64,000 nucleotides of DNA, from assembly GCF_048403405.1 (NCBI RefSeq), contig NZ_CP183129.1; one strand, given 5' to 3'. Made by a program: the position numbers and the translations under genes. This document shows, in pieces, positions 39,428 to 57,852 of the stretch; position 1 is the stretch's first letter, and every line of letters starts with the position of its first letter. The notes beneath the pieces were generated by a model that was not told where the DNA came from, made no database searches, and saw only the letters and a program-made list of their open reading frames with translations. Source of the stretch: Escherichia coli (GTDB taxonomy: Bacteria > Pseudomonadota > Gammaproteobacteria > Enterobacterales > Enterobacteriaceae).

Positions 39428-39442
39428 CTCATTAAACCTGGG

Positions 39443-39775
39443 TTACTGGCTGACTTTAATATCCTGTAATAAAGAAAGGTTGCCCTGCTGGACAAAATTA
39501 AACGCCACTTTGTCGCCGGTTTTTATTTCGCCCATCTTCGTCTGCGGGGTGATGGTAAAGCGCATGGTCATCTCCGGCCAGTTCACGGCAGCAATCGGAT
39601 CGTGATGGATAGTGATTTTTTTGCTTTCCAGATCAATACCTTTTACCACCCCTGTGGCACTAATGACCTGCGGTTGTGCTTCGCTCATGGTTTCATGATG
39701 ATGTTCGTTAGCCTGGGCATTAAAGCCAATAACGGTAAACAGACTGAACATTGCGACTTGCAGTGCTTTTTTCAT
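39443..39775 (-). CDS. cusF: periplasmic copper chaperone
   Basis: 110-aa ORF MKKALQVAMFSLF...; matches CusF. Confidence 0.95.
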   Translation of the reverse strand: MKKALQVAMFSLFTVIGFNAQANEHHHETMSEAQPQVISATGVVKGIDLESKKITIHHDPIAAVNWPEMTMRFTITPQTKMGEIKTGDKVAFNFVQQGNLSLLQDIKVSQ

Positions 39776-39798
39776 TTATTCTCTCCTGGAGTTAAAAA

Positions 39799-41170
39799 TT
39801 ATTGCTGCCAACCGCCACCAAGTGCGGTATATAAAGAAATTTCGTTAACCTGACGGGCATAATTCAGGTCAAGTAAAGTTTGTCGGGTTGCAAATAAAGA
39901 ACGTTCGGCATCCAGCACTTCCAGATAACTGACTGCGCCGTGCTGATATAATGCCCGCGCCCGTTGCAAAGTAATTTGCAGCGATGCCAGATAACGCTGC
40001 TGGGCGCTAATTTGATCGTTCAGGCTTTGACGTAATGCCAGCGCATCTGCCACTTCTTTAAAGGCATTCTGGATTTTCTGTTCATAATTCACCACCGACT
40101 GCTGCTGGCGAATTTCGGCGATATCCAGATTGGCCTGGTTGCGTCCGGCATTAAAAATGGGGATCTCAATTTTGGGAATAAAATTCCACATCCCGCTGCT
40201 GGCGTTAAATAAGGACGACAGATCGCTGCTGGCGGTCGATATTCCGCTGGTCAGACTGATAGACGGGAAAAATGCCGCGCGTGCAGCGCCAATATTGGCA
40301 TTAGCCGCCATCAACGCGTGTTCAGCTTCCATAATATCCGGGCGCTGCAATAAGATTTGCGACGACAAGCCCGCCGGTAATTTAACGCTTTGCAGGCTGT
40401 CGCTGTTTACTGTTTGCGCTTGCGGCAGCTTGCCGTAGCTTCCCAGCAACAGTTGCAATGCATTATTCGCCTGCGCCAGTTCCCCCTGACGTTTAGCGAT
40501 GTCGCTGCGGGTACTTTCTATCACCCCGCGAGCCTGTTCCAGCGCCAGAACATTGCTGCTACCGGTCAACAGTTGTTTTTCGACAAACGCATATGACTGC
40601 TGATAATTACGCAGCGTTTCTTCGGCTATTTGCAATTGCGCATACGCCAGTTGCTGATTGAAATAGCTTTGCGCGACATTAGAAACCAGCAGAATATGCA
40701 CCGCGCGCTGGGCTTCCTCAGTGGCTAAATAATTTTGGCGCTCGGCTTCGCTCATGTTCTTTAAGCGACCGAAAAAATCGAGATCAAAGCTGGCGTTAAG
40801 GCCGGTCGAAAACTCCCGTGTCGTGGCGGTATTCCCTTTAAGATTACCGCTCCAGCTGCCGCTGCCCTCGCCATTGAGCTGTGGGTAGCGGTCGGCATCG
40901 GTCAGACGATATTGCGCCCGTGCCTCCTGCACTTTCAGCGTCGCCATGCGCAAATCCCGGTTATTCACCAGCGCCTCGCTAATCAGCGTCTTCACCTGAT
41001 TATCAATAAAAAAGGTGCGCCAGCCCGCGTTCTGGTAGTTATCTGCTGCGTTAACCAGGCCGTTCTGGCTGAGTGAGAACTGCTTCGGTACGGGCATTGC
41101 CGGACGCTGATAATCCGGTGCCAATGAACAACCGGTTAGCGCAAGGGCCACACAAAATGGCAGAAGTTTA
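39799..41170 (-). CDS. cusC: outer-membrane factor of Cus efflux, 5' end interrupted by IS26
   Basis: Lipoprotein signal LLPFCVALALTGC is present, but the first few native codons are replaced: the reading frame runs into the IS26 terminus at 41171 and only a GTG inside IS26 could serve as start. Confidence 0.85.
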
Positions 41171-41990
41171 GGCACTGTTGCAAATAGTCGGTGGTGATAA
41201 ACTTATCATCCCCTTTTGCTGATGGAGCTGCACATGAACCCATTCAAAGGCCGGCATTTTCAGCGTGACATCATTCTGTGGGCCGTACGCTGGTACTGCA
41301 AATACGGCATCAGTTACCATGAGCTGCAGGAGATGCTGGCTGAACGCGGAGTGAATGTCGATCACTCCACGATTTACCGCTGGGTTCAGCGTTATGCGCC
41401 TGAAATGGAAAAACGGCTGCGCTGGTACTGGCGTAACCCTTCCGATCTTTGCCCGTGGCACATGGATGAAACCTACGTGAAGGTCAATGGCCGCTGGGCG
41501 TATCTGTACCGGGCCGTCGACAGCCGGGGCCGCACTGTCGATTTTTATCTCTCCTCCCGTCGTAACAGCAAAGCTGCATACCGGTTTCTGGGTAAAATCC
41601 TCAACAACGTGAAGAAGTGGCAGATCCCACGATTCATCAACACGGATAAAGCGCCCGCCTATGGTCGCGCGCTTGCTCTGCTCAAACGCGAAGGCCGGTG
41701 CCCGTCTGACGTTGAACACCGACAGATTAAGTACCGGAACAACGTGATTGAATGCGATCATGGCAAACTGAAACGGATAATCAACGCCACGCTGGGATTT
41801 AAATCCATGAAGACGGCTTACGCCACCATCAAAGGTATTGAGGTGATGCGTGCACTACGCAAAGGCCAGGCCTCAGCATTTTATTATGGTGATCCCCTGG
41901 GCGAAATGCGCCTGGTAAGCAGAGTTTTTGAAATGTAAGGCCTTTGAATAAGACAAAAGGCTGCCTCATCGCTAACTTTGCAACAGTGCC
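41171..41990 (+). mobile_element. IS26 (IS6 family), 820-bp copy 1
   Basis: Termini GGCACTGTTGCAAA ... TTTGCAACAGTGCC; internal 234-aa Tnp26. Confidence 0.95.
41234..41938 (+). CDS. tnpA: IS26 transposase Tnp26 (variant with His at residue 29)
   Basis: MNPFKGRHFQRDIILWAVRWYCKYGISY(H)ELQEM... recognised as the IS26 transposase. Confidence 0.95.
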   Translation: MNPFKGRHFQRDIILWAVRWYCKYGISYHELQEMLAERGVNVDHSTIYRWVQRYAPEMEKRLRWYWRNPSDLCPWHMDETYVKVNGRWAYLYRAVDSRGRTVDFYLSSRRNSKAAYRFLGKILNNVKKWQIPRFINTDKAPAYGRALALLKREGRCPSDVEHRQIKYRNNVIECDHGKLKRIINATLGFKSMKTAYATIKGIEVMRALRKGQASAFYYGDPLGEMRLVSRVFEM

Positions 41991-42439
41991 AATTTTACGC
42001 CGTCGGCGGTACGCAGCCAGCGCGGGGATTTGAGTCCTTCCGTGAAATTCCAGACCAGCTCACACAGCAGCCCGGTCAGGGTTTGCTCCATTTTTGGTTC
42101 CGCCGGACGTTCCAGCAGAAGCTGGAGTAGTGCGAGGCAGTATTCGCACAAGGAATCAGGTTCGGAAATAAAGTGCTCTGGTGTGGCGGGAAGGGTATCC
42201 ACGGTCAGGCTTTCGGTAAGATGCGGTGGGATGGGGTCGTGTAGTGTGGGTTGCAGTAGCGCAAGAGCCGCGTGAAGCCGCCCGCAGAGCGCCAGTCGTA
42301 GCGCTGGATCGTCGGTTTCAATCAGGGTTTCGGCAAAGCGGGCGCAGTAGTCAGCAAGGACAGTGAAATCCGTGGTGGCATTGAAGGGGACGGTCAATAG
42401 ATCGAGTAAATCGCTGTCAGTGGTGAGGATTGTAGCCAT
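41972..42439 (-). CDS. hypothetical acidic protein; 3' end runs into IS26 (probably truncated)
   Basis: 155-aa ORF with a GGAGG Shine-Dalgarno upstream of the ATG at 42439; its last codons and stop lie inside the IS26 inverted repeat. No family recognised. Confidence 0.45.
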   Translation of the reverse strand: MATILTTDSDLLDLLTVPFNATTDFTVLADYCARFAETLIETDDPALRLALCGRLHAALALLQPTLHDPIPPHLTESLTVDTLPATPEHFISEPDSLCEYCLALLQLLLERPAEPKMEQTLTGLLCELVWNFTEGLKSPRWLRTADGVKLALLQS

Positions 42440-42785
42440 AGGGCAACCTCCGATAAGTGGGTGTTCAAGCCACCACCGGAGAGGCTAATCTCGCGGGTGG
42501 TGGAACCGGGCAGGGTTAGCCTTACCAGCCTTATCGGACACTGGCGCGTCTTGCGACGCCCCCGCCCGGCCCACCATTGAGATGTAACCGTGCGAACAAC
42601 ACAAAAAAAGACGCTGGCGCGTCATGTGTCGCCGATAAGATTTCTTCAGGAGGCTAATCCCGACGCCTGATTTTGCAGGCGCGGGAGAAAGATACTGCGA
42701 TTGGTCATGAGTGGCAAGGGCTACATCATGTTTACCGACATCTCACGCAAAAATACCCTGATTATTAATAGCGAAAATCAGTTTC

Positions 42786-45700
42786 TTATTTTGGCGGTAG
42801 CTTTTTGCGGTTCTTTGCCAACTGGAATCCTTCAGGTAACGGTTTGAATTTATCGCCGCCTTTAGGCCAGCGTTTTGCCCTGCTCTGAAATGCCCTTAAC
42901 GAGTCGATATCCAGCGTTGCAGCGACCACAAAGTCATTATCACCGCCCTTCACACGAGCAATATCACGCATAAAGGGTTCTTTTGCCGGGGAACGTACGC
43001 GACTATCGCCGTATTTTCGGTTATTCACTAAAATAGTATAGGCATGAATATCCAGCGCTGCTGATTCAATCAACGATGCAAACGTATCTAGATCTTTATT
43101 CCAGCTCAATACCATTAATGCATCGAGTGCGCCCTGAAAACGGATCCTCGCTTTACTATTCTGGAGTTCAGAGCAAATCATAACGCCAAAATTGACGCCG
43201 TGATGAATATATACCGGCTTACGTTGTTTAACATTAAGTGTCGAATCCCAAGACTTACCATAAGTTGAAAATAATGCCTCATCTTCACCTACGGCGGGTT
43301 CCAGCTTGGGTTGCCATATTTTGACACTCGCTGGATAGCCGAGTCTGTTATCTGAAAGGACAAGTACGGCCTCACTCTTCAGTTGATTATCGTCTAAGTG
43401 GCGGTATTCTGTTCCCGCAATTAGACTGATACCCGCCGAACTCAAACGATCAGCAATACTGTTAACCCAGCGTAACGGGATTGAAAGCTCAGGGAATAAA
43501 ACATAATCAGGTTTAGGAGATAGTTTCAATGTTGCATTAACCAGTTCAGAAATCCGCTGGTACCTTGAACGGGACAAGTTAGATTTATTGCAGGCCATTT
43601 TAGCCCAGTCGTCCTCCTCTGTTTTAATGCTGGTTAGCGCAACGACAACTTTATGTTTCCTGTCTGTGCCAATATGAATGAATTTCTTAGGCCGAGCTTT
43701 TTTTGTCGCTTCATCTGAGTCCTGCTCCGATGCTAGCAACGTCGGTTTGATCCATACTCCGCGTAATGCTTGAGTATATTTTGCCCAAATGGTGGACGGT
43801 CTCTCATCTGGTTTTTTGTCGGATGTGGAGGGTAATCCAACACATTCGGGGGCCAGTTCTGATATTTCAGCGGGTGTTAAAGGACGTGTAGGGAAAATGT
43901 AAGGTAGGTAACTTTCGTTTTTACGATTTCCTTTAGCCACTTTTTCCAGTCGGGTATTCTTGGTTGATTTCAAAAATAGCTTAATAACGTCAATATCAAT
44001 AAGCGATGAGTCGCTCATTAATTTCAGTATTTTAACTTCTTTTTTACTATCACGCTGATTAACAAGTTTTTCTGCCGACTGACTCTTTACGATCTGTTTA
44101 TAAGGTTCCTTTGCTAAATCAGCTCGAGCTACCAATGGCGCTTTTAAATAAAAATCTGCTGAATCAAAGCGAAGATCCAGTAAATCCTTTAGATTCGTCA
44201 GACTTTGTGAAATATGATTAAAAAATGTATCCGCAAGGCACTCTTCTTTCTTTGAACGTTTATCAAGAAATAATCTGTCAGGACTGTAATATCGTGTCGC
44301 TGCATCAACAAATAGCCAGCTTAATGTGCCTTTTATACAGCGCCAAAGATCATTTACTGCTCGAGTTTTGCAACCATTTATATTCACTTCCTTACCTGAA
44401 GTAATCACCGATGCCAACAGGTTGATGGATTCGTAAGCTTTAAGTACAATTTTTTCCGCGTGCTGCCATTCATTCATACTGATAGCAAAGCCAAGCAGCC
44501 TTGGCAGATAACTAAAATGTGCAAATAGATTATCAGCCCTAAGAATATGGTTGTAGGCAAACTGATAAAACTCTTCCCGCTGTTCTTTCCATTCACTTGG
44601 AGGCAGATCTCGTGCCAGTGTTTCAACGTAGCGTAATTGCAGTGACCAGCCCAAACGACGAATGGTTAATCCATCCGCACGGCGCAGAGTATCGGCATTT
44701 TCACCTACACTACCGGCAGCGGAAAGGACTTTAGCTGCGGTGGAGTGTTCCAGTTGATCCGGTGAAGGCATCAAGCGGTGTTCACTAGAAAGCTCGTAGA
44801 TCTCCTTTTCGATACTGTCGAGCAGGTCTATTCCAGCCCTCCCTTGAAGCACGAAAAGTTTTTGCTTATCGGATTGTAACTGGATGGTGGTCTTACCCTG
44901 GAAATGCTCGCCCTGCTGTATTTGCCATATTTGTTTTTGCTCGTTTTTCAAATAAACGCAATCATTGCCAAGCCTATCTTGCAGCAATAACATAAATTCG
45001 TGATTATTAGTAATTGTCCCTGTATCGCGTATTACAAGGAACATATCATCGACATAACGACCGTAGTGAATTGGTGATAGTTTTTCAATGACTAATTTAT
45101 CCCAATGGTGTAGCAATATATTTGAAATGATCCGACTGGCTGTTAATCCAATGACCAGACCACCATTAATAACAGGTGTTTTGTACGCTATTTTCTTTCC
45201 AAATGCCGCTGCGCCGTCAGACCAGTGCTTTAAGAATACTGCTAACTGTGCAGTAAACGCTTTTTCATCCTCAGTCAGTTTTATGTTTAGTGTGTTATAG
45301 AGATCATCAGAGGTTATAGCCAGTGGATCAATAAAATGATAGTAACTTTTTAAATCCAGTGAGGCGGCGATAATGTCACGATCTTTTTCCAACTCGTCAC
45401 GTATAGCTTTTAAGCCATCACCACGCCATTTTTGGTAGGGCTGGAAGTAGGGGCTAAAAGAACCCACGGCACTGATATGGAATGGATTATCCTGCTCATT
45501 GCTAAATAATTCATCATTACGAATACGCTTTAGCCGCGCGCCATAGCAACAGTTATCTAAGCTGGCATCAAATTTATGCCCGACCATGTTAATCCATAGT
45601 GCAGAGATAATGTGACTATCAACCGGGAAGTCACCAATAATACGAAACTCTGGTATCAGATCAAAATTATTAAATAAATGGTCGGCTGCTCGTTTAGGAT

Positions 45701-45995
45701 TAGAAAAGTGGACGTGTCCATTTTGGGATTCATGTTTTTTCTTTGTGGTTAATTTTTTCGGTAACAAACGAAATTTGCCAATCAACTTCTTATTGCTACT
45801 GAATCCATCTTCGCTCTGCAAAAGATCTAAGAGTTTTTGCAGGTTTTCAAGTAATTCCTGCTCATACTCGGCAAATTTGATAGCAACAGGAAATGTATTC
45901 TCAAAGAAGCTATCGGCTTTTGCTTTCCGGTAAGCGACCAGAAGGTCTTCAATCGTCAGATCATCCCAGCCAGTGAAAATTGCCTGATATGTCAT
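42786..45995 (-). CDS. reverse transcriptase-nitrilase fusion protein (DRT type 1 / UG1-like defence-associated RT)
   Basis: 1069-aa ORF with AAGGA Shine-Dalgarno. RT motif A ASLDLKSYYHFID, motif B GGLVIGLTASRIISNILL, motif C RYVDDMFLV (nt 45033-45059); C-terminal CN-hydrolase domain with FPELS (Glu836), VKIWQPK and GVMICSEL (Cys941, nt 43173-43175). Confidence 0.85.
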   Translation of the reverse strand: MTYQAIFTGWDDLTIEDLLVAYRKAKADSFFENTFPVAIKFAEYEQELLENLQKLLDLLQSEDGFSSNKKLIGKFRLLPKKLTTKKKHESQNGHVHFSNPKRAADHLFNNFDLIPEFRIIGDFPVDSHIISALWINMVGHKFDASLDNCCYGARLKRIRNDELFSNEQDNPFHISAVGSFSPYFQPYQKWRGDGLKAIRDELEKDRDIIAASLDLKSYYHFIDPLAITSDDLYNTLNIKLTEDEKAFTAQLAVFLKHWSDGAAAFGKKIAYKTPVINGGLVIGLTASRIISNILLHHWDKLVIEKLSPIHYGRYVDDMFLVIRDTGTITNNHEFMLLLQDRLGNDCVYLKNEQKQIWQIQQGEHFQGKTTIQLQSDKQKLFVLQGRAGIDLLDSIEKEIYELSSEHRLMPSPDQLEHSTAAKVLSAAGSVGENADTLRRADGLTIRRLGWSLQLRYVETLARDLPPSEWKEQREEFYQFAYNHILRADNLFAHFSYLPRLLGFAISMNEWQHAEKIVLKAYESINLLASVITSGKEVNINGCKTRAVNDLWRCIKGTLSWLFVDAATRYYSPDRLFLDKRSKKEECLADTFFNHISQSLTNLKDLLDLRFDSADFYLKAPLVARADLAKEPYKQIVKSQSAEKLVNQRDSKKEVKILKLMSDSSLIDIDVIKLFLKSTKNTRLEKVAKGNRKNESYLPYIFPTRPLTPAEISELAPECVGLPSTSDKKPDERPSTIWAKYTQALRGVWIKPTLLASEQDSDEATKKARPKKFIHIGTDRKHKVVVALTSIKTEEDDWAKMACNKSNLSRSRYQRISELVNATLKLSPKPDYVLFPELSIPLRWVNSIADRLSSAGISLIAGTEYRHLDDNQLKSEAVLVLSDNRLGYPASVKIWQPKLEPAVGEDEALFSTYGKSWDSTLNVKQRKPVYIHHGVNFGVMICSELQNSKARIRFQGALDALMVLSWNKDLDTFASLIESAALDIHAYTILVNNRKYGDSRVRSPAKEPFMRDIARVKGGDNDFVVAATLDIDSLRAFQSRAKRWPKGGDKFKPLPEGFQLAKNRKKLPPK

Positions 45996-46289
45996 GCGTT
46001 ATCGTCCTTAGATTACAGTCTGTACAGAATTAGCCAGCCGTTTCATGCCCGAAGGGGGGCTCTTGACACCAGTAATCCATCAGTGAGGCTGGCAATAATT
46101 TTGATTTGTATCCATGTTACACGCTCCCCGCAACCAGTCCGAGCATATATTTGTCACATTTTTCCCGAAAGTGATTAAGTTTGAATTTTTTGTTTAATGT
46201 CGATTTTTAGTCGACAAAATGAGGAATAAGTAAACTATTTCTTGCTGTGGCGTATCCCTGAATCTACACTGGTTTAAATATTTGTACTA

Positions 46290-47093
46290 ATGTCTATTCA
46301 GAGGCGACAGTTGCCAAACTATCTAAACTGGCTGATGCAGCACACGCTACCCGGCCAGGTGCTGCTCCAGTCATGGCTTACCCGCAACGGCATAGATCGT
46401 AAGCTCTCTTATCTCTATGTGAAGAATGGCTGGCTCAGGCGGATCGCTCACGGCGTATACTGCCGGACGGGCCGTGAGCCGGATTGGGTAGACGCGGTTT
46501 ACTGCCTTCAAACACAGTGGGAAAAGCCTGTTCGGGTGGCGGGGCTAACCAGCCTTGCGCTTCAGGGCCATGCGCACTATACCGAACCGGGTAAGCCGCA
46601 GGTCTGGCTCGCGCTTCCGGCTTACGTTAAGCTGCCGGGATGGTTTGCTGCCTTCGAACAATCTGCAACATTTATCACGCTGTATACATCGGGGCTTACC
46701 GTAGATGTAACGTCATTGACTACGGAACTGAAAATTGGCGACCGCCAGTTAGCAGGCAGTGCCCCGGAACTGGCCGCGTATGAGATCGCCTGCGGCGTTC
46801 CTTCGTTGATATCGTTCGAACATGCCGATGCTCTGTTTCAGGGGATGAATCTTCTCAGCCCACGCAAATTGCAGGCACTGCTTCGCGCCAGCCATTCGGT
46901 TAAAACCAACCGGGTGATGCTTTACCTTGCCCGGCGTAATGGACACCCTTATTTTCAGTATATTGATCAAAGCGGTATAGAAACAGGTACGGGAAAGCGG
47001 CAAATCATACCCGGCGGCTGGCTGGAGCCGGATTATCAAATTACTGTTCCACGCGCATTTAAACCGGAAGGAGTCGAAGATGGATCTGCGTGA
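46290..47093 (+). CDS. AbiEi-like antitoxin / transcriptional regulator (type IV TA)
   Basis: 267-aa ORF immediately upstream of, and overlapping by 14 bp, an AbiEii-like nucleotidyltransferase gene; N-terminal wHTH-like region with an R-x-x-x-G-V-Y motif. No clear Shine-Dalgarno, so the start is uncertain. Confidence 0.65.
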   Translation: MSIQRRQLPNYLNWLMQHTLPGQVLLQSWLTRNGIDRKLSYLYVKNGWLRRIAHGVYCRTGREPDWVDAVYCLQTQWEKPVRVAGLTSLALQGHAHYTEPGKPQVWLALPAYVKLPGWFAAFEQSATFITLYTSGLTVDVTSLTTELKIGDRQLAGSAPELAAYEIACGVPSLISFEHADALFQGMNLLSPRKLQALLRASHSVKTNRVMLYLARRNGHPYFQYIDQSGIETGTGKRQIIPGGWLEPDYQITVPRAFKPEGVEDGSA

Positions 47094-48000
47094 TAGCTAT
47101 GCCCGGCAGGTCAAACTGTTGATGGCCGCTCTGCCGTATGTGGCGAAGGAGTCCTGTTTCGCGTTGAAAGGCGGCACCGCAATCAATTTGTTTGTGCAGG
47201 ATTTTCCCCGTCTGTCGGTGGATATTGATCTGGCGTACAAGAGCTTTGCGGATCGCGATACTGATTTGGCGGCTATCAACGACGCTTTGAAGAGGATTAC
47301 TGCATCGCTGAACGGCAGACCGGGGATCACCGCGATTCGGCAGGAAAATAAAGCGGATGAAAAGCGCATCATTGTGAATACCGCTGATGCAAAGATTAAG
47401 ATCGAGGTTAGCCCGGTCTGGCGCGGGCTGTTGTTGCCTCCGGCAGAAATGCCTGTGTGCGAACGTGTGGAAATGGAGTATGGCTTCACCACCATGAGTG
47501 TCGTCTCGCTGGCGGATCTTTATGGCGGTAAAATCTGCGCTGCGCTTGATCGTCAGCACCCGCGCGATCTGTTTGATGTGCTGAATATGCTGGAGAAACC
47601 GGGACTGATGCGGGAGATCTTTGACGGTTTTCTTTGTTATCTGGCAGGCCATCCCCGCCCCATCGCCGAGTTGCTGGCTCCAAACTGGGATACAGAGCGG
47701 ATCGCCACGTTGTACGCGCAGGAATTTTCGGGGATGACTCAGCAGGAAACGTCGCTGGAATCGCTGCTGTCAGTAACGACTTTGCTGCCGCAGGCGTTGA
47801 AGTCACATCTTACGGATCTGGATCGCGAGTTCTTGCTCAGTTTTAAGCAAAACAGCCCTGACTGGTCGCGGTATCGCTATCCTGAAATTCAGCATCTTCC
47901 GGCTATTCGCTGGAAGCAACGTAATCTGGCGGTGCTGAAAGATAAAAATCCGGCGAAGTATGTGGCGGCGGTGAATAAGCTAGAGAGGGTGCTGGCGTAA
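47080..48000 (+). CDS. AbiEii-like nucleotidyltransferase toxin (DUF1814 family)
   Basis: 306-aa ORF with GGAG Shine-Dalgarno; N-terminal nucleotidyltransferase motif LKGGTAINLF...LSVDIDLAY typical of AbiEii/AbiGii toxins. Confidence 0.8.
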   Translation: MDLRDSYARQVKLLMAALPYVAKESCFALKGGTAINLFVQDFPRLSVDIDLAYKSFADRDTDLAAINDALKRITASLNGRPGITAIRQENKADEKRIIVNTADAKIKIEVSPVWRGLLLPPAEMPVCERVEMEYGFTTMSVVSLADLYGGKICAALDRQHPRDLFDVLNMLEKPGLMREIFDGFLCYLAGHPRPIAELLAPNWDTERIATLYAQEFSGMTQQETSLESLLSVTTLLPQALKSHLTDLDREFLLSFKQNSPDWSRYRYPEIQHLPAIRWKQRNLAVLKDKNPAKYVAAVNKLERVLA

Positions 48001-48364
48001 TCAATAGACCAGCATTAATCACGGATGATTACCAATCAGACAGATATGGTTAAATCATCGAATTCATAATTAATACTTTTTCTTACGCCGCTGAACAGCT
48101 TGAAAAGGATACATATTTTAAATATCAGTGAAGTGGACAGTTTATTGCCGTTATTAATAGAGATGGAGGAATAAATACGCGTATTCTACTATTGCAACAA
48201 AAACAACGATGATGATCAGTTTTCATAATGAAGTAACCTGACAGATATAAAAATGTTGATTGAGGCTCAATGCCCGGATGAAGGTTGTCGAGGGAGCCAG
48301 GTGGTTTTTTCTTTTGGGTGATCTCCATTGCTGGATAGTCCCCTCTTTCTCGCTCAAAGCAGAC

Positions 48365-48689
48365 TGTACTGCACCCATTTTGTTGGACGATGAAATGGAA
48401 TAGCCCCTAATATGTCAAAGCCAAAATACCCTTTTGAAAAGCGCCTTGAAGTCGTGAATCACTACTTCACAACTGATGATGGTTACAGGATCATCTCGGC
48501 ACGTTTTGGTGTCCCCCGAACCCAGGTCAGGACATGGGTTGCCCTCTATGAAAAACATGGAGAAAAAGGTTTAATTCCCAAACCTAAAGGCGTTAGTGCT
48601 GATCCAGAGTTGCGTATTAAGGTCGTGAAAGCTGTGATCGAGCAGCACATGTCCCTTAATCAGGCTGCTGCTCACTTTATGCTTGCTGG
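48365..48689 (+). mobile_element. IS150 5' fragment (325 bp), truncated by IS26
   Basis: Begins with the IS150 terminal repeat TGTACTGCACCCATTTTG and is identical in protein sequence to the start of insJ in the full copy at 27720-29162; ends abruptly at the IS26 terminus. Confidence 0.9.
48412..48689 (+). pseudogene. insJ: insJ fragment (first ~92 codons of IS150 OrfA)
   Basis: MSKPKYPFEKR...AAAHFMLAG, then the frame reads into IS26. Confidence 0.85.
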
Positions 48690-49509
48690 GGCACTGTTGC
48701 AAATAGTCGGTGGTGATAAACTTATCATCCCCTTTTGCTGATGGAGCTGCACATGAACCCATTCAAAGGCCGGCATTTTCAGCGTGACATCATTCTGTGG
48801 GCCGTACGCTGGTACTGCAAATACGGCATCAGTTACCGTGAGCTGCAGGAGATGCTGGCTGAACGCGGAGTGAATGTCGATCACTCCACGATTTACCGCT
48901 GGGTTCAGCGTTATGCGCCTGAAATGGAAAAACGGCTGCGCTGGTACTGGCGTAACCCTTCCGATCTTTGCCCGTGGCACATGGATGAAACCTACGTGAA
49001 GGTCAATGGCCGCTGGGCGTATCTGTACCGGGCCGTCGACAGCCGGGGCCGCACTGTCGATTTTTATCTCTCCTCCCGTCGTAACAGCAAAGCTGCATAC
49101 CGGTTTCTGGGTAAAATCCTCAACAACGTGAAGAAGTGGCAGATCCCACGATTCATCAACACGGATAAAGCGCCCGCCTATGGTCGCGCGCTTGCTCTGC
49201 TCAAACGCGAAGGCCGGTGCCCGTCTGACGTTGAACACCGACAGATTAAGTACCGGAACAACGTGATTGAATGCGATCATGGCAAACTGAAACGGATAAT
49301 CAACGCCACGCTGGGATTTAAATCCATGAAGACGGCTTACGCCACCATCAAAGGTATTGAGGTGATGCGTGCACTACGCAAAGGCCAGGCCTCAGCATTT
49401 TATTATGGTGATCCCCTGGGCGAAATGCGCCTGGTAAGCAGAGTTTTTGAAATGTAAGGCCTTTGAATAAGACAAAAGGCTGCCTCATCGCTAACTTTGC
49501 AACAGTGCC
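48690..49509 (+). mobile_element. IS26 (IS6 family), 820-bp copy 2
   Basis: Same termini as copy 1, same orientation; one nucleotide differs from copy 1 (G at 48838 versus A at 41319). Confidence 0.95.
48753..49457 (+). CDS. tnpA: IS26 transposase Tnp26
   Basis: 234-aa ORF with ...GISYRELQEM..., the form recalled as canonical for Tnp26. Confidence 0.95.
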   Translation: MNPFKGRHFQRDIILWAVRWYCKYGISYRELQEMLAERGVNVDHSTIYRWVQRYAPEMEKRLRWYWRNPSDLCPWHMDETYVKVNGRWAYLYRAVDSRGRTVDFYLSSRRNSKAAYRFLGKILNNVKKWQIPRFINTDKAPAYGRALALLKREGRCPSDVEHRQIKYRNNVIECDHGKLKRIINATLGFKSMKTAYATIKGIEVMRALRKGQASAFYYGDPLGEMRLVSRVFEM

Positions 49510-51543
49510 AAACCGTTAGCGATTATGGTTCCGGCGTGGAATGAAACGGGCGTCATCGGCAATATGGCCGAGCTGGCGGCGACCACGCTCGACTATGAAA
49601 ACTATCATATCTTTGTTGGCACCTACCCCAACGACCCCGATACACAGCGTGATGTTGACGAAGTGTGCGCTCGCTTCCCGAACGTGCATAAGGTAGTCTG
49701 CGCGCGTCCTGGCCCCACCAGCAAAGCCGACTGCCTGAACAACGTGCTGGACGCCATCACCCAGTTTGAGCGTAGCGCCAATTTCGCTTTTGCTGGTTTT
49801 ATTCTGCATGACGCCGAAGACGTAATTTCACCGATGGAATTGCGTCTGTTCAACTATCTGGTCGAGCGTAAAGATCTGATTCAGATCCCGGTGTATCCGT
49901 TCGAACGCGAATGGACGCACTTCACCAGCATGACTTACATTGATGAGTTTTCAGAACTGCATGGCAAAGATGTTCCGGTGCGTGAAGCCCTCGCCGGACA
50001 AGTGCCCAGCGCAGGCGTCGGTACCTGTTTCAGCCGCCGCGCCGTGACCGCACTGTTAGCTGACGGTGACGGTATTGCTTTCGACGTGCAGAGTCTTACT
50101 GAAGATTACGACATTGGTTTCCGCCTGAAAGAAAAAGGTATGACGGAAATTTTTGTCCGTTTTCCGGTGGTGGACGAAGCCAAAGAACGCGAGCAGCGTA
50201 AATTTTTACAGCACGCGCGGACGTCAAACATGATCTGCATGCGCGAATATTTCCCTGATACCTTTTCGACTGCGGTTCGACAAAAATCTCGCTGGATCAT
50301 CGGCATTGTTTTCCAGGGCTTTAAAACCCACAAATGGACCTCCAGCCTGACGCTGAACTACTTTCTCTGGCGCGACCGCAAAGGGGCAATCAGTAACTTT
50401 GTCAGCTTTCTCGCGATGCTGGTGATGATCCAGCTTCTGCTGTTACTGGCGTATGAAAGTTTGTGGCCCGATGCCTGGCATTTCCTTTCTATTTTCAGCG
50501 GCAGCGCATGGTTAATGACCCTGCTGTGGCTAAACTTTGGTTTGATGGTTAACCGCATCGTGCAGCGGGTGATTTTTGTCACTGGCTACTACGGTCTGAC
50601 GCAGGGGCTGCTATCTGTCCTGCGTCTTTTCTGGGGCAACCTGATTAACTTCATGGCCAACTGGCGCGCGTTAAAACAGGTACTTCAACACGGCGATCCA
50701 CGTCGTGTCGCGTGGGATAAAACAACGCATGACTTCCCCAGCGTGACTGGCGATACCCGCTCGTTGCGCCCGTTAGGCCAAATTCTGCTGGAAAATCAGG
50801 TCATCACTGAAGAACAACTCGATACAGCACTGCGTAATCGCGTCGAAGGTCTACGCCTGGGCGGTTCAATGCTGATGCAGGGGCTGATTAGCGCCGAACA
50901 GCTGGCACAGGCGCTGGCAGAGCAAAACGGCGTGGCGTGGGAATCCATCGACGCCTGGCAGATCCCGTCCTCGCTGATTGCCGAAATGCCGGCCTCCGTG
51001 GCGCTGCATTATGCAGTGCTGCCGCTGCGTCTGGAAAATGATGAGTTAATTGTCGGCAGTGAAGATGGTATTGACCCGGTTTCGCTGGCGGCCCTGACGC
51101 GTAAAGTCGGACGCAAAGTGCGTTACGTCATTGTTCTGCGGGGACAAATTGTCACGGGGTTACGTCACTGGTATGCACGCCGACGCGGTCACGATCCGCG
51201 GGCAATGTTGTACAATGCGATTCAGCATCAGTGGCTCACGGAACAGCAGGCCGGTGAAATCTGGCGGCAATATGTGCCGCATCAGTTCCTGTTCGCCGAA
51301 ATACTGACCACGCTCGGTCATATTAATCGTTCAGCAATTAACGTGTTGTTATTGCGCCATGAACGCAGTTCTCTGCCGCTCGGCAAGTTTTTGGTCACCG
51401 AAGGCGTTATCAGCCAGGAAACGTTGGATCGCGTCCTGACAATTCAACGCGAATTACAAGTTTCGATGCAATCACTATTACTCAAAGCAGGTTTAAACAC
51501 AGAACAGGTTGCGCAACTGGAGTCCGAAAATGAAGGAGAATAA
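49510..51543 (+). pseudogene. nfrB: phage N4 adsorption protein B (glycosyltransferase family 2), 5'-truncated by IS26
   Basis: The frame is open from the IS26 junction; the first Met gives 672 aa against a recalled native length of about 745 aa, so N-terminal membrane segments and the promoter are missing. Confidence 0.85.
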
Positions 51544-54502
51544 CCTTAATCGCGTCATCGGATGGTCTGGTTTACTGCTGACGTCTTTATTGAGTACCAG
51601 CGCACTCGCAGACAATATCGGCACCAGCGCAGAAGAGCTGGGGCTGAGCGATTATCGCCATTTTGTTATTTATCCCCGTCTCGATAAGGCGCTGAAGGCA
51701 CAGAAAAATAACGACGAAGCAACCGCCATCCGCGAATTTGAATATATACACCAACAGGTGCCGGATAATATTCCGCTAACTTTATACCTTGCGGAAGCCT
51801 ATCGCCATTTTGGTCATGATGACCGGGCGCGGCTGTTGCTTGAGGATCAACTGAAACGTCACCCAGGAGATGCCCGACTTGAGCGCAGTCTGGCGGCTAT
51901 TCCAGTTGAAGTGAAAAGCGTTACGACTGTTGAAGAACTGCTTGCCCAGCAAAAAGCGTGCGACGCTGCGCCGACCCTGCGTTGTCGCAGTGAAGTCGGG
52001 CAGAATGCCCTGCGGCTGGCACAATTACCTGTCGCCAGAGCGCAACTGAACGATGCGACGTTTACTGCATCGCCGGAAGGAAAAACGCTGCGAACCGATC
52101 TGCTGCAACGCGCAATCTACCTGAAACAATGGTCCCAGGCAGATACGCTATACAATGAAACACGCCAGCAGAACACATTAAGCGCGGCAGAACGCCGCCA
52201 GTGGTTTGATGTGCTTCTTGCCGGGCATCTGGACGATCGGATCCTGGCGCTGCAATCACAGGGGATCTTCACCGATCCTCAGTCATATATTACTTACGCG
52301 ACCGCGCTGGCTTATCGTGGCGAAAAAGCACGCCTCCAGCATTATCTCATTGAAAATACGCCGCTATTTACCACGGACGCACAAGAGAAAAGTTGGCTCT
52401 ATCTGTTATCTAAATACAGCGCCAACCCCGTTCAGGCGTTGGCGAATTATACGGTACAGTTTGCCGACAACCACCAGTATGTTGTTGGCGCGACGCTACC
52501 GGTGCTGTTAAAAGAAGGTCAGTACGACGCAGCGCAAAAACTGCTCGCCACCCTCCCCGCCAATGAAATGCTTGAGGAGCGTTATACCGTTAGCGTGGCG
52601 ACCCATAACAAGGCTGAAGCTCTGCGTCTGGCACGATTGCTGTATCAGCAAGAACCGGCAAATCTTACCCGCCTGGATCAACTGACCTGGCAACTGATGC
52701 AGAACGAGCAGTCACGCGAAGCTGCCGATTTATTGCTGCAACGCTATCCTTTCCAGGGCGATGCGCGTGTCAGCCAGACTTTAATGGCGCGACTGGCGTC
52801 TCTGCTGGAAAGTCATCCTTACCTGGCAACTCCGGCGAAGGTGGCGATTTTATCGAAACCCTTACCGCTGGCGGAGCAACGTCAGTGGCAAAGTCAGTTG
52901 CCGGGTATTGCAGATAATTGCCCGGCAATAGTTCGCTTGCTGGGCGATATGTCGCCTTCCTACGATGCCGCCGCCTGGAACCGTCTGGCAAAGTGTTATC
53001 GGGACACGCTACCCGGTGTGGCGTTGTATGCATGGCTTCAGGCCGAACAACGACAACCGAACGCCTGGCAACATCGTGCGGTAGCCTATCAGGCGTATCA
53101 GGTTGAGGACTACGCCACCGCACTGGCGGCCTGGCAGAAAATCAGTCTTCACGACATGAGCAATGAGGATCTGCTTGCTGCTGCCAATACCGCCCAGGCG
53201 GCAGGAAATGGTGCGGCTCGCGATCGCTGGCTTCAGCAGGCAGAACAACGTGGGCTGGGAAACAATGCCCTCTACTGGTGGCTACATGCGCAACGTTACA
53301 TTCCTGGTCAGCCGGAACTCGCACTGAACGATCTCACGCGCTCAATCAATATTGCGCCTTCTGCCAACGCTTACGTTGCGCGGGCGACAATTTATCGCCA
53401 ACGTCATAATGTCCCGGCGGCGGTGAGTGATTTGCGCGCCGCACTGGAACTGGAACCGAATAATAGCAACACCCAAGCAGCGCTCGGTTACGCCTTGTGG
53501 GATAGCGGTGATATCGCACAGTCGCGGGAAATGCTCGAACAGGCGCATAAAGGGCTACCGGACGATCCGGCACTTATCCGACAACTGGCCTACGTGAACC
53601 AGCGTCTGGATGACATGCCTGCGACGCAGCACTACGCCCGGCTGGTGATTGATGACATTGATAATCAGGCGCTGATAACCCCACTGACCCCAGAGCAAAA
53701 TCAGCAACGCTTCAATTTCCGCCGTCTGCATGAGGAGGTCGGTCGCCGCTGGACGTTCAGTTTCGATTCTTCCATCGGCTTGCGTTCCGGCGCGATGAGT
53801 ACCGCTAACAATAATGTCGGCGGCGCAGCGCCAGGGAAAAGCTATCGTAGCTACGGGCAACTGGAAGCCGAGTACCGCATCGGACGCAATATGCTGCTGG
53901 AAGGCGACCTGCTCTCAGTTTATAGCCGCGTCTTTGCCGATACCGGAGAAAACGGGGTGATGATGCCGGTGAAAAATCCGATGTCCGGCACCGGTCTGCG
54001 CTGGAAGCCGCTGCGCGATCAGATCGTTTTCCTCGCCGTCGAACAGCAGTTGCCGCTGAACGGGCAAAATGGCGCATCCGATACCATGCTGCGCGCCAGC
54101 GCCTCATTCTTTAATGGCGGCAAATACAGCGACGAATGGCACCCGAACGGTTCAGGCTGGTTTGCCCAAAACCTGTACCTCGATGCGGCGCAATATGTCC
54201 GCCAGGATATTCAGGCGTGGACGGCAGATTATCGCGTAAGCTGGCATCAGAAGGTGGCGAACGGACAGACTATTGAGCCTTACGCTCACGTTCAGGACAA
54301 CGGTTATCGTGATAAAGGCACTCAGGGCGCGCAGCTTGGCGGTGTCGGGGTCCGCTGGAATATCTGGACCGGCGAGACGCACTACGACGCCTGGCCGCAC
54401 AAAGTCAGTCTCGGCGTCGAATATCAACATACCTTTAAGGCGATTAATCAACGTAACGGAGAGCGCAACAACGCGTTTCTCACCATTGGAGTGCACTGGT
54501 AA
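51530..54502 (+). CDS. nfrA: phage N4 adsorption protein A (outer membrane)
   Basis: Start at MKENNLNRVIGWSG; about 990 aa; overlaps the nfrB 3' end. Confidence 0.9.
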   Translation: MKENNLNRVIGWSGLLLTSLLSTSALADNIGTSAEELGLSDYRHFVIYPRLDKALKAQKNNDEATAIREFEYIHQQVPDNIPLTLYLAEAYRHFGHDDRARLLLEDQLKRHPGDARLERSLAAIPVEVKSVTTVEELLAQQKACDAAPTLRCRSEVGQNALRLAQLPVARAQLNDATFTASPEGKTLRTDLLQRAIYLKQWSQADTLYNETRQQNTLSAAERRQWFDVLLAGHLDDRILALQSQGIFTDPQSYITYATALAYRGEKARLQHYLIENTPLFTTDAQEKSWLYLLSKYSANPVQALANYTVQFADNHQYVVGATLPVLLKEGQYDAAQKLLATLPANEMLEERYTVSVATHNKAEALRLARLLYQQEPANLTRLDQLTWQLMQNEQSREAADLLLQRYPFQGDARVSQTLMARLASLLESHPYLATPAKVAILSKPLPLAEQRQWQSQLPGIADNCPAIVRLLGDMSPSYDAAAWNRLAKCYRDTLPGVALYAWLQAEQRQPNAWQHRAVAYQAYQVEDYATALAAWQKISLHDMSNEDLLAAANTAQAAGNGAARDRWLQQAEQRGLGNNALYWWLHAQRYIPGQPELALNDLTRSINIAPSANAYVARATIYRQRHNVPAAVSDLRAALELEPNNSNTQAALGYALWDSGDIAQSREMLEQAHKGLPDDPALIRQLAYVNQRLDDMPATQHYARLVIDDIDNQALITPLTPEQNQQRFNFRRLHEEVGRRWTFSFDSSIGLRSGAMSTANNNVGGAAPGKSYRSYGQLEAEYRIGRNMLLEGDLLSVYSRVFADTGENGVMMPVKNPMSGTGLRWKPLRDQIVFLAVEQQLPLNGQNGASDTMLRASASFFNGGKYSDEWHPNGSGWFAQNLYLDAAQYVRQDIQAWTADYRVSWHQKVANGQTIEPYAHVQDNGYRDKGTQGAQLGGVGVRWNIWTGETHYDAWPHKVSLGVEYQHTFKAINQRNGERNNAFLTIGVHW

Positions 54503-55393
54503 ATGCGTAAGTTCATTTTCGTATTGCTGACACTGCTTTTGGTCAGCCCTTTTTCCTTTGCGATGAAAGGTATTATCTGGCAACCACAAAACCGTGATAG
54601 TCAGGTTACCGATACCCAGTGGCAGGGGCTGATGAGTCAGTTACGTTTGCAAGGCTTCGATACCCTGGTTTTGCAATGGACCCGTTACGGCGATGCATTC
54701 ACCCAGCCAGAACAGCGCGCGTTATTGTTTAAGCGTGCAGCAGCTGCGCAACAGGCTGGCCTGAAGCTGATTGTCGGGCTGAATGCCGATCCGGAATTTT
54801 TTATGCACCAGAAACAGTCATCCGCGGCGCTGGAAAGCTATCTTAACCGCCTACTGGCTGCCGATCTCCAGCAAGCCAGATTATGGAGCGCCGTACCTGG
54901 CGTAACGCCGGATGGCTGGTACATCAGCGCGGAAATTGACGACCTGAACTGGCGCAGCGAAGCCGCCCGTCAGCCTTTGCTGACATGGTTAAACAACGCG
55001 CAGCGGTTGATTAGCGATGTTTCAGCAAAACCGGTTTATATCAGTAGTTTTTTCGCCGGAAACATGTCGCCCGATGGCTATCGCCAACTGCTGGAACAAG
55101 TTAAAACAACCGGCGTTAATGTCTGGGTACAGGATGGCAGCGGCGTGAATAAACTTACCGCTGAACAGCGTGAACGTTATCTACAGGCCAGCGCCGATTG
55201 CCAAAGCTCCGCCCCAGCAAGCGGCATTGTTTATGAACTGTTTGTCGCCGGCAAAGGCAAAACCTTTACAGCGAAACCGAAACCGGATGCAGAGATCGCC
55301 TCGCTGTTAGCGAAACGTTCCTCTTGCGGTAAAGACACGCTCTATTTCTCTCTGCGCTATTTGCCCGTTGCGCACGGCATTCTCGAGTATTAA
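54503..55393 (+). CDS. ybcH: conserved protein YbcH
   Basis: 296-aa ORF with signal peptide; synteny. Confidence 0.85.
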   Translation: MRKFIFVLLTLLLVSPFSFAMKGIIWQPQNRDSQVTDTQWQGLMSQLRLQGFDTLVLQWTRYGDAFTQPEQRALLFKRAAAAQQAGLKLIVGLNADPEFFMHQKQSSAALESYLNRLLAADLQQARLWSAVPGVTPDGWYISAEIDDLNWRSEAARQPLLTWLNNAQRLISDVSAKPVYISSFFAGNMSPDGYRQLLEQVKTTGVNVWVQDGSGVNKLTAEQRERYLQASADCQSSAPASGIVYELFVAGKGKTFTAKPKPDAEIASLLAKRSSCGKDTLYFSLRYLPVAHGILEY

Positions 55394-55575
55394 ATCTCCT
55401 CCAGGTAAGTCGGGTACGACCTGGCTTACCTCTTTCGCTCTCGTCAGAATTCCATCAAGATTAATTGCTAAAAAGCGTGCTAAAGAAAGAAGATCGTTAT
55501 CGGCGAACGGGCCGATCACTCATGCAGGAAGCATAGATCCTTTGAGCGGAGTTTCTGATATCTGAGGAGTGCGAA

Positions 55576-56337
55576 ATGCAATTGAGCAGCAGTGAACCTT
55601 GCGTGGTGATCCTGACCGAAAAAGAGGTAGAGGTAAGCGTCAATAACCATGCTACGTTTACCCTTCCGAAAAACTACCTGGCCGCCTTCGCGTGCAACAA
55701 TAACGTCATTGAACTCTCAACGTTAAATCACGTATTAATCACCCACATCAACCGTAACATCATCAACGATTATCTGTTGTTTTTAAATAAGAACTTAACC
55801 TGTGTAAAGCCCTGGTCGCGGCTGGCTACCCCGGTTATCGCTTGTCATAGCCGTACACCGGAAGTGTTCCGGCTAGCCGCCAACCACAGCAAGCAGCAAC
55901 CCAGCAAACCCTGCGAAGCGGAGTTGACGCGCGCATTGCTTTTTACCGTATTGTCTAACTTTCTTGAGCAATCGCGGTTTATTGCCCTACTGATGTATAT
56001 CTTACGCAGCAGCGTCCGCGACAGCGTCTGCCGCATTATTCAAAGCGATATTCAGCATTACTGGAATCTGCGAATTGTCGCCAGTTCGCTATGTTTAAGC
56101 CCCAGCCTGCTCAAAAAGAAATTAAAAAACGAAAATACCAGCTATAGCCAGATTGTCACAGAGTGTCGTATGCGTTACGCCGTACAGATGTTATTGATGG
56201 ATAACAAAAATATCACTCAGGTAGCGCAATTATGTGGCTATAGCAGCACGTCGTACTTTATCTCTGTTTTTAAGGCGTTTTACGGCCTGACACCGTTGAA
56301 TTATCTCGCCAAACAGCGACAAAAAGTGATGTGGTGA
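55576..56337 (+). CDS. envY: AraC-family porin thermoregulator
   Basis: 253-aa ORF with C-terminal AraC HTH; matches EnvY. Confidence 0.85.
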   Translation: MQLSSSEPCVVILTEKEVEVSVNNHATFTLPKNYLAAFACNNNVIELSTLNHVLITHINRNIINDYLLFLNKNLTCVKPWSRLATPVIACHSRTPEVFRLAANHSKQQPSKPCEAELTRALLFTVLSNFLEQSRFIALLMYILRSSVRDSVCRIIQSDIQHYWNLRIVASSLCLSPSLLKKKLKNENTSYSQIVTECRMRYAVQMLLMDNKNITQVAQLCGYSSTSYFISVFKAFYGLTPLNYLAKQRQKVMW

Positions 56338-56382
56338 AGGGCAAAGCGGAAACGGATAGGACGGGGATAAATGAAGAAGAAA

Positions 56383-56459
56383 TGGCGCGCCCTGCAGGAT
56401 TCGAACCTGCGGCCCACGACTTAGAAGGTCGTTGCTCTATCCAACTGAGCTAAGGGCGC
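56383..56459 (-). tRNA. argU: tRNA-Arg (anticodon UCU)
   Basis: The reverse complement reads GCGCCCTTAGCTCAGTTGGATAGAGCAACGACCTTCTAAGTCGTGGGCCGCAGGTTCGAATCCTGCAGGGCGCGCCA: cloverleaf, UCU anticodon, 3' CCA. Confidence 0.9.
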
Positions 56460-56701
56460 GTTGATACCGCAATGCGGTGTAATCGCGTGAATTATACGGT
56501 CAACCCTTGCTGAGTCAATGGCTTTTGATCTGGTTGCTGAACAAGTGAACGACCGCGTCTGATTTTCTGATTTATTTCGCTATAGCGGCAAACAAACGTA
56601 CACCGCTGCGCGTCTGAATCAAGAAAACCCGTATTTTCATGTATCAAAGTACAATTTCCCGCCCTAACGGAAAATTGTCCGATCCTATGAGACTGGTAAC
56701 T

Positions 56702-57334
56702 ATGAAACCAACGTCGGTGATCATTATGGATACTCATCCTATCATCAGAATGTCTATTGAAGTTCTGTTGCAAAAAAACAGTGAATTGCAAATTGTCCTG
56801 AAAACGGATGATTATCGCATAACCATCGATTATCTCCGAACCCGTCCTGTTGATTTAATCATTATGGATATAGACTTGCCCGGTACAGACGGTTTTACCT
56901 TCCTGAAAAGGATCAAACAAATCCAGAGTACAGTGAAAGTATTATTTTTATCATCGAAATCAGAATGCTTTTATGCTGGCAGAGCGATACAAGCTGGTGC
57001 TAACGGCTTTGTCAGTAAATGCAATGATCAGAATGATATTTTTCATGCCGTTCAGATGATCCTCTCCGGATACACTTTTTTTCCCAGCGAAACGCTCAAC
57101 TATATAAAAAGCAATAAATGTAGCACGAATAGTTCAACGATCACTGTGCTATCTAATCGTGAAGTGACCATATTACGTTATCTGGTTAGCGGATTATCCA
57201 ATAAAGAAATTGCCGATAAGTTATTACTTAGCAATAAAACAGTTAGTGCGCATAAATCTAATATTTATGGCAAGCTAGGTTTGCATTCAATTGTAGAGCT
57301 TATCGACTATGCCAAATTATATGAATTAATATAA
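56702..57334 (+). CDS. fimZ: LuxR/NarL-family response regulator of fimbrial expression
   Basis: Start at MKPTSVIIMDTHP; receiver plus HTH domains; 210 aa. Confidence 0.9.
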   Translation: MKPTSVIIMDTHPIIRMSIEVLLQKNSELQIVLKTDDYRITIDYLRTRPVDLIIMDIDLPGTDGFTFLKRIKQIQSTVKVLFLSSKSECFYAGRAIQAGANGFVSKCNDQNDIFHAVQMILSGYTFFPSETLNYIKSNKCSTNSSTITVLSNREVTILRYLVSGLSNKEIADKLLLSNKTVSAHKSNIYGKLGLHSIVELIDYAKLYELI

Positions 57335-57336
57335 TA

Positions 57337-57852
57337 TTAATTATAATTGATCATAAATATCGCATCCGCTTTCGCCACACCTGGCTGAACACCACTGGCT
57401 AACGCTCGATAATTGGCAAAAAAGTTTAGTGTGACATTGCCATTTGCATCTACTTCCTCAGTCGGGCTCGCCTCCCCCAGTGCGAGCCGGGAGCGATCGC
57501 TATTACGTAATTCGATGGCGACGGTTTGTGCCATTGCGGGATCATCCAGAGCCAGCAGGTTGGCATCAGATGCCGGCGTTCCCGTAAATAAAATTGCAAC
57601 TGAACCCGGAGGACATCCCTCCAGCCGCAGGCTAAAAGGGACGAGTGCCGTGGTATCGCCAGCGCTCAGTAATTGTGTCGTAGGCCATCTGCCTAAATCT
57701 ACTGTCTTATCCTTATCCGCTGTGTTTACGGTACAGGAGAAATCAACAACGTTACCGTGCAAATTGATATTAATCGTTCCTAAAGGGTCAACTGCCCATC
57801 CACTGGAACTCCACAGTAGCCCGCAGAAACAGCTAAAGAGTACTCTTCTCAT
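57337..57852 (-). CDS. sfmF: fimbrial minor subunit
   Basis: Start at MRRVLFSCF; about 171 aa. Confidence 0.85.
   Translation of the reverse strand: MRRVLFSCFCGLLWSSSGWAVDPLGTININLHGNVVDFSCTVNTADKDKTVDLGRWPTTQLLSAGDTTALVPFSLRLEGCPPGSVAILFTGTPASDANLLALDDPAMAQTVAIELRNSDRSRLALGEASPTEEVDANGNVTLNFFANYRALASGVQPGVAKADAIFMINYN

Follow-up and report, generated by a model that had tools for sequence, protein, structure and literature searches.

A truncated IS150 copy at an IS26 junction beside a thrW phage-defense islet located between cusC and nfrB in Escherichia coli

Introduction

In a 64,000-nucleotide stretch of Escherichia coli DNA, referred to here as the window, a piece of the insertion sequence IS150 stops at the terminus of an IS26 copy, and AT-rich DNA lies on its other side. 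The locus raises the question of where this IS150 copy inserted, whose DNA it inserted into, and how the product came to be joined to IS26 at its present place. A preliminary description, made from the letters of the window, had read it as a nested insertion in donor DNA.

What IS26 can do at such a locus is well described. The element forms cointegrates replicatively, with 8-bp duplications; in its intramolecular cis events the adjacent segment is deleted and a circle with one IS26 is released, and in its trans events the segment is inverted and inverted 8-bp tracers are left (PMC7986276; PMC4471558). Circular IS26 units insert beside an existing IS26, flanking duplications are often absent, and direct IS26 copies bounding a segment are documented (PMC7986276; PMC4471558). 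We therefore describe the IS150 fragment, the DNA on its left, the segment to which it belongs, and the site where that segment now stands, and then weigh the routes that could have produced the arrangement.

Results

The fragment occupies positions 48365 to 48689 (plus strand) and corresponds to nt 1 to 325 of the 1,443-nt IS150, comprising the left terminal repeat, the promoter/leader, and insJ codons 1 to 92 plus 2 nt. Reading of positions 47400 to 49800 places the IS150 left end (TGTACTGCACCC..) at 48365, and the left-end pattern TGTACTGCACCCATTTTGTTGGACG occurs at two places in the window, 48365 (plus) and 29162 (minus), against a chance expectation of 0. The fragment is identical at all 325 of 325 positions to the beginning of a full-length IS150 that is also resident in the window, and BLAST matches to it are annotated as "IS3-like element IS150 family transposase." The 14-bp terminal repeat of IS26, GGCACTGTTGCAAA, begins at 48690, directly after IS150 nt 325. 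The preliminary description had reported 325 bp of IS150 ending exactly at an IS26 terminus with 92 codons of insJ, and this is what we found: the fragment is followed by an 820-bp IS26, the insJ start at 48412 leaves 278 nt, or 92 complete codons, and the coordinates given earlier are all right to the base.

A complete IS150 has 1,443 bp, both ends, and insJ-insK. The fragment stops at nt 325, where IS26 starts, and its right end is not in the window; the GAC/GAC flanks described below were seen only for the full element in another strain. Compared with IS150 as known (IS3 family, insJ/insK, programmed −1 frameshift), it shares the terminus TGTACTG.. and nt 1 to 325, which is 23% of the element, but lacks the right end, insK, and the frameshift site, and therefore it cannot transpose. 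As judged from its reading frames, it could at most express a 109-amino-acid InsJ' fusion protein with a helix-turn-helix (HTH) domain. This chimeric frame (48412 to 48741, plus strand), taken from the open reading frame list, joins InsJ residues 1 to 92 to 17 codons from the IS26 left end and keeps the HTH_28 domain (Pfam match over residues 10 to 60, E = 6e-16). The earlier wording that IS150 was "truncated by IS26" holds in that the fragment ends at the IS26 terminus; it is better read as IS26 joined between nt 325 and 326, and the remaining 1,118 nt of IS150 may persist elsewhere in the genome beside another IS26.

The full-length IS150 (27720 to 29162, minus strand, 1,443 bp) lies between hokE and ybdK, has both ends and insJ-insK, and is flanked by a 3-bp duplication, GGG. 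The same hokE/ybdK insertion is annotated in the relative strain 4621, and it is older than the insertion that gave rise to the fragment. A repeat search paired the two as inverted sequences of 326 nt with 100% identity (28838 to 29163 versus 48364 to 48689); the 326th base matches by chance in the flank, and the IS150 share is 325 nt. The flank of the fragment (..CTCGCTCAAAGCAGAC|) is unlike the left-end flank of the full copy (reverse complement of GGGTTGATAG..), a difference already pointed out in the preliminary description and now confirmed, the full copy having its own GGG duplication. The same description had suggested that homology between the two could mediate inversion or deletion of an intervening "ent/cus" region. 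Inversion is possible; since the two repeats are inverted, homologous (RecA) recombination can only invert 29163 to 48364 and not delete it. As to its content, the interval does hold cus genes (it contains ybdK, pheP, ybdG, cusA, cusB, cusF, cusC', IS26 copy 1, and the segment described below), but ent/fep lie to the left of the full IS150.

On the left of the fragment are 364 bp (48001 to 48364) with a GC content of 37.6%, against 51.3% for the whole window. They had been called about 360 bp of AT-rich DNA of unknown origin. AT-rich they are, but their origin could be found: a search of 5,426 complete E. coli genomes with positions 47900 to 48720 identified them as chromosomal E. coli DNA downstream of AbiEii, namely the spacer with the ykgR remnant that closes the islet at thrW (tRNA-Thr) on its right. 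The ykgR pseudogene remnant itself (about 48154 to 48222, minus strand) is annotated as "small membrane protein YkgR" in E. coli chromosomes. No Rfam family was found in positions 47900 to 48800, the only matches being sub-threshold noise to mir-15. A foreign or plasmid origin of the spacer and the adjoining segment was considered and rejected, the spacer matches in the plasmid collection being mislabeled chromosomes and one odd record of strain MS 69-1. The arrangement AbiEii-ykgR-IS150 was found in no plasmid among 72,556.

The odd record, NZ_CP146678.1 (MS 69-1 "plasmid unnamed3," 64,057 bp, circular), joins phage tail genes to chromosomal DNA. Its chromosomal part (thrW islet, pao, yagU, and ecp genes) is also present in the MS 69-1 chromosome, and the record may be an aberrantly excised prophage with flanking DNA or an assembly artifact.

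The insertion site of IS150 in this spacer can be seen both empty and filled. In the six closest relatives the site is empty and reads ..CTCAAAGCAGAC|CCTGGAATTG.. (..GCAGAC|CCTGG..). In strain FDAARGOS_1289, the only one of the 5,426 genomes with IS150 at the ykgR site, a complete 1,443-bp IS150 is inserted at the same nucleotide and in the same orientation (6376 to 7818 of the compared region), flanked by GAC on both sides; the left junction of spacer and IS150 in the window is the same as that in FDAARGOS_1289, with a clean IS150 end. FDAARGOS_1289 is of an unrelated lineage, its thrW islet is a different one, and its spacer differs from that of the window at 2 positions. Because these differences are absent from the window, two independent insertions at the same site are likelier than a transferred allele. 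The junction of ykgR and IS150 gave zero exact matches in metagenome and species-representative genome collections. Insertion at the same nucleotide in two lineages suggests a preferred IS150 target. A hairpin or imperfect palindrome at the empty site was considered as the cause and rejected, as the fold is no better than that of shuffled sequences (z = −0.43).

We are thus highly confident that the fragment descends from an IS150 that inserted independently into the thrW spacer of the host itself and now ends at the IS26 junction. The independence of this insertion, proposed in the preliminary description, is borne out by the empty and filled sites; the separate donor proposed with it is not, the islet being the host lineage's own.

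This ownership follows from the whole segment between IS26 copy 1 and the IS150 fragment (41991 to 48364, plus strand, 6,374 bp), hereafter the cargo, which is a piece of the thrW islet. It is 100% identical to the native copy in six chromosomes (TUM14771, GN02461, 4621, MS 69-1, TUM1226, and OX030728), and the match spans exactly from the IS26 edge to the IS150 edge (positions 1292 to 7665 of a query covering 40700 to 50000), with 0 mismatches over 6,374 bp in the comparison with strain 4621. The same six chromosomes are the only 100% matches to 49510 to 64000 and to 29163 to 41170; the next-best genomes reach 99.2% and 99.7% for the two flanks, respectively. Since the cargo and both flanks match the same six genomes perfectly, the window comes from that clone and the supposed donor islet is native to the lineage. 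In the six relatives, the islet and nfrB are on opposite strands, about 305 to 321 kb apart.

The native gene order is proA, thrW, integrase remnant, hypothetical gene, ash, reverse transcriptase (1,069 amino acids), AbiEi, AbiEii, ykgR', LysR-family gene, and pao genes. In the window, the hypothetical islet gene (41972 to 42439, minus strand) has lost its last 22 nt, and its frame now ends within IS26 copy 1. The next gene with a match (42786 to 45995, minus strand) encodes a 1,069-amino-acid defense-associated reverse transcriptase (DRT) of the UG5-nitrilase type, with a full-length match to the PADLOC profile PDLC03780 RT_UG5-nitrilase (E = 0, 1034 bits); this protein had no Pfam match, and it is labeled "hypothetical" in the closest genomes. 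It is followed by the AbiEi antitoxin/regulator (46290 to 47093, plus strand; Pfam AbiEi_3, 1.5e-35; PADLOC AbiEi, 2.5e-79) and the AbiEii nucleotidyltransferase toxin (47080 to 48000, plus strand; Pfam AbiEii, 3.2e-35; PADLOC AbiEii, 4.4e-116). Full-length profile matches thus assign these genes, by prediction, to the AbiE type IV toxin-antitoxin systems and the DRT UG5-nitrilase group. The thrW islet is a predicted two-system defense islet with P4-like remnants (ash and an integrase fragment). Compared with the islets at the E. coli thrW hotspot, which carry P4-like remnants and defense genes, the order hypothetical-ash-RT-AbiEi-AbiEii-ykgR' is identical, but the islet in the window is detached from thrW and the integrase remnant and stands between cusC' and 'nfrB.

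At this site, the two IS26 copies and what lies between them stand in place of 19,579 bp of strain 4621 (cusC start, cusRS, vgrG/rhs, ISAs1, and the nfrB 5' end). Strains 4621 and TUM14771 have cusR, cusS, vgrG, rhs with immunity/orphan modules, and ISAs1 in the interval from the cusC start to nfrB; no piece of the missing 19,579 bp was found elsewhere in the window. Compared with strain 4621, the breakpoints lie 11 nt into cusC (..GGCAGAAGTTTA|CAAGGAGACAT) and 204 nt into nfrB (..CCAGATGAA|AAACCGTTAGCG). The remaining cusC' (39799 to 41170, minus strand) has no first 11 nt, and the promoter and cusRS are gone. An in-frame GTG in the IS26 terminal repeat (cusC' frame 39799 to 41184, minus strand) could serve as a start, MPKLLPFCVALALTGC.. 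(MPKLLPF..., compared with the native MSPCKLLPF..), and would, from its predicted translation, restore a near-native CusC lipoprotein signal peptide. By the open reading frame list and the same comparison, nfrB (49510 to 51543, plus strand) has no first 204 nt (68 codons). NfrB is a c-di-GMP-activated glycosyltransferase needed for adsorption of phage N4, and the strain is probably N4 resistant owing to the truncation.

The vgrG/rhs island of the relatives (between cusS and nfrB) differs by about 3 kb between strains 4621 and TUM14771, which are otherwise identical, strain 4621 having one more rhs module than TUM14771 (region positions 4418 to 20570). Such a difference between relatives indicates that recombination between Rhs repeats appears to be active in the clone.

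The IS26 terminal repeat occurs at 4 places in the window and delimits two 820-bp copies in direct orientation, 7,519 bp apart from start to start. Copy 1 (41171 to 41990, plus strand) has the 8-bp flanks GAAGTTTA on the left and AATTTTAC on the right, and copy 2 (48690 to 49509, plus strand) has CTTGCTGG on the left, within IS150, and AAACCGTT on the right, within nfrB. Both have the features of IS26 (IS6 family), with 820 bp, 14-bp terminal inverted repeats, and an intact tnp26 gene. They differ at one base: copy 1 has A instead of G at nt 149 (position 41319 of the window), which changes Tnp26 at residue 29 from arginine to histidine (R29H). Among about 22,000 IS26 places in the 5,426 complete E. 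coli genomes, none has A at nt 149, and the best match is 99.2%. Either a mutation private to this copy or an error in sequencing accounts for the change. Its use as the mark of a known IS26 variant or of a separate origin was rejected, as it is private and uninformative on the pathway.

An 8-bp direct duplication is absent around copy 1, around copy 2, and around the outer pair GAAGTTTA/AAACCGTT, and no tracer pair, direct or reverse complement, was found among the four 8-bp flanks. Lack of the duplication is what intramolecular or targeted IS26 events lead one to expect (PMC7986276; PMC4471558). As the outer flanks differ, the structure is not a simple composite-transposon insertion with duplication. 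It does have a central segment between two direct IS26 copies, as an IS26 pseudo-compound transposon has. Insertion as a unit would leave an 8-bp duplication with no loss of target; here, there is no duplication, and the 19,579 bp of strain 4621 are missing.

None of the four IS26 junctions could be found in the complete E. coli genomes or among the PLSDB plasmids. The IS150|IS26 junction is absent from 72,556 plasmids (PLSDB) and from the 5,426 complete E. coli genomes, with zero exact matches in the metagenome and species-representative genome collections. Two E. coli records cover the IS150|IS26 query in two pieces about 200 bp further apart (spans of 507 and 531 bp), which means that IS150 is cut at a different point there. 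The other three IS26 junctions were found in none of the complete E. coli genomes, and no complete E. coli genome searched holds the whole composite (query 40700 to 50000). The exact products of four chimeric or truncated reading frames, including the 109-amino-acid InsJ' fusion and the islet-gene chimera, had no match in public assemblies, the look-up being weaker for the cusC' product, whose query began with GTG, perhaps translated as V. A literature search found nothing specific on a structure of IS150 stub, IS26, and thrW islet. With the IS26 junctions in no other genome, plasmid, or metagenome contig, the structure rests on one assembly.

Discussion

How did a native islet with a piece of IS150 come to stand between two IS26 copies about 320 kb from thrW? 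We consider it moderately probable, taking the steps as a package, that it traveled as a translocatable unit. In an event separate from that at hokE/ybdK, an IS150 would first have entered the ykgR-remnant spacer at a point about 80 bp outside the thrW defense islet. IS26, presumably plasmid derived, would then have landed in or joined this IS150 at nt 325/326. Most economically, this IS26 would next attack the left edge of the islet, 6.7 kb away, by intramolecular replicative transposition in cis and so release a circular translocatable unit of one IS26, the islet, and IS150 nt 1 to 325, and the circle would re-enter the chromosome about 320 kb away at cusC-nfrB, leaving the segment between two direct IS26 copies. 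The 19,579 bp would have been removed by an IS26 adjacent deletion, or the circle may have entered beside an IS26 that had already deleted them.

Entry of a circular unit makes the direct orientation of both IS26 copies automatic, and adjacent deletion or entry beside an existing IS26 explains the absent 8-bp duplication. The sequences themselves show the identities, the breakpoints, the empty and filled states of the IS150 site, and the lack of the 19.6 kb; the succession of the steps, the passage through a circle, and the choice between moving and copying of the islet are inferred. If the unit moved, it would have left at thrW the sequence ..CACTGATA(AATTTTAC)|IS26|TAGTGGTT.. (IS150 nt 326 to 1443)-GAC-LysR gene. 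Against this route, the window displays one side of each event, and the junction of IS26 with IS150 nt 326 to 1443 and the fate of the 19.6 kb lie outside it. Moreover, with no 8-bp tracer pair among the four flanks, the pathway is not fixed. Copying in of a single IS26 also gives identical copies at birth, so that a later mutation must be assumed for copy 1; this is plausible because the variant is private.

Another history would be a reciprocal exchange through two IS26-mediated inversions (by replicative transposition in trans, or by RecA between inverted IS26 copies). Inversion A would have its ends in the IS150 at the thrW locus and in nfrB, and inversion B at the left edge of the islet and in cusC; the islet and the stub would swap places with the 19.6-kb cusRS-rhs block without loss of DNA, and the intervening stretch of roughly 320 kb would regain its original orientation. 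The orientation of the cargo relative to cus and nfrB is opposite to the native one, as at a junction formed by inversion, such events are expected to leave no 8-bp direct duplications (PMC4471558), and IS26 inversions that split another IS are documented, as for ISSwi1 in pKPN-068 (PMC4471558). However, two large intra-replichore inversions would be needed, together with an extra independent arrival of IS26 at cusC or at the left edge of the islet; the direct orientation of the two copies in the window would be merely coincidental; and no inverted 8-bp tracer pair is present within the window. We regard such an exchange as unlikely.

As the junction combinations occur in no other genome, an error of assembly also has to be weighed. 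Had IS26 made simple insertions at four places (cusC, nfrB, the islet gene, and IS150) and had the assembler taken a wrong path through the 820-bp repeats, the cusC'-islet and stub-nfrB joins would be false, and IS150 would then be interrupted, not truncated, at the native thrW locus. The set of repeat-flank junctions would be the same as in a true exchange, so short reads cannot separate the two. The window, though, runs through three IS copies in one piece, which makes a crude collapse of short reads less likely: 64 kb contiguous over a 1.4-kb IS150 and two IS26 copies imply long reads or careful finishing, and the private base in copy 1 shows that the IS26 copies were resolved individually and not collapsed. 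Four simple IS26 insertions that pair so neatly are also no more economical than a real rearrangement, and we hold an artifact to be very unlikely. There is equally little probability that the IS26-islet-IS150'-IS26 unit was built in a sister strain or on a plasmid, arrived by conjugation or transduction, and entered through IS26-targeted or homologous recombination, leaving the native thrW islet untouched. IS26-bounded units are commonly plasmid borne (PMC4471558; PMC7986276), and the 64-kb circular record of MS 69-1 carries this islet extrachromosomally; yet neither AbiEii-ykgR-IS150 nor the IS150|IS26 junction was seen in any of the plasmids searched, and as the cargo is without a single difference from the islet of the lineage in 6.4 kb, only a cell of the same clone could have supplied it.

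The locus can be compared with known IS26 structures. It resembles the pseudo-compound transposons and translocatable units described by Harmer and Hall (PMC7986276) in its direct 820-bp copies, its lack of a duplication, and its adjacent deletion. It differs in what is bounded: neither an antibiotic-resistance gene nor any plasmid or foreign DNA is present in the segment, which consists of the host's own chromosomal phage-defense islet (DRT UG5-nitrilase and AbiE) and an IS stub, and its mobility as a unit is putative. A resident IS cut by IS26, with one piece far from its old neighbor, is also known from ISSwi1, split into pA, pB, and pC in pKPN-068 (PMC4471558); the event in the window is chromosomal, and the second piece and the inverted 8-bp repeats lie outside the view.

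The 325-bp stub at IS26 is a real but ordinary scar of nested insertion sequences and no new kind of element. Insertion sequences cut by IS26 are commonplace in clinical E. coli, and the value of such a scar is mainly that of a lineage marker and a record of the order of events, which here we infer to run from the lineage-wide hokE/ybdK insertion of IS150 through the strain-private one at ykgR to the IS26 junction and the relocation. What is modestly unusual is that the IS26-bounded segment is a phage-defense islet of the same genome and not imported resistance DNA.

The receiving site has changed as well, with cusRS (the copper/silver sensor-regulator) and the vgrG/rhs toxin island absent, nfrB truncated, and cusCFBA deprived of its promoter; likely phenotypes, predicted from gene content, are copper/silver sensitivity and phage N4 resistance. 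The 325-bp inverted IS150 pair and the direct IS26 copies are substrates for a 19.2-kb inversion or for loss of the cargo as a circle, respectively, and structural heterogeneity in cultures is plausible. A bolder reading, which we consider distinctly unlikely, is that the IS26-bounded DRT and AbiE unit is a live mobile defense cassette, with the add-on that the InsJ' HTH stub is expressed and modulates transposition of the full IS150 copies in trans. If this were true, the unit would form translocatable units and hop to plasmids, and IS26 would spread antiphage systems as it does resistance genes.
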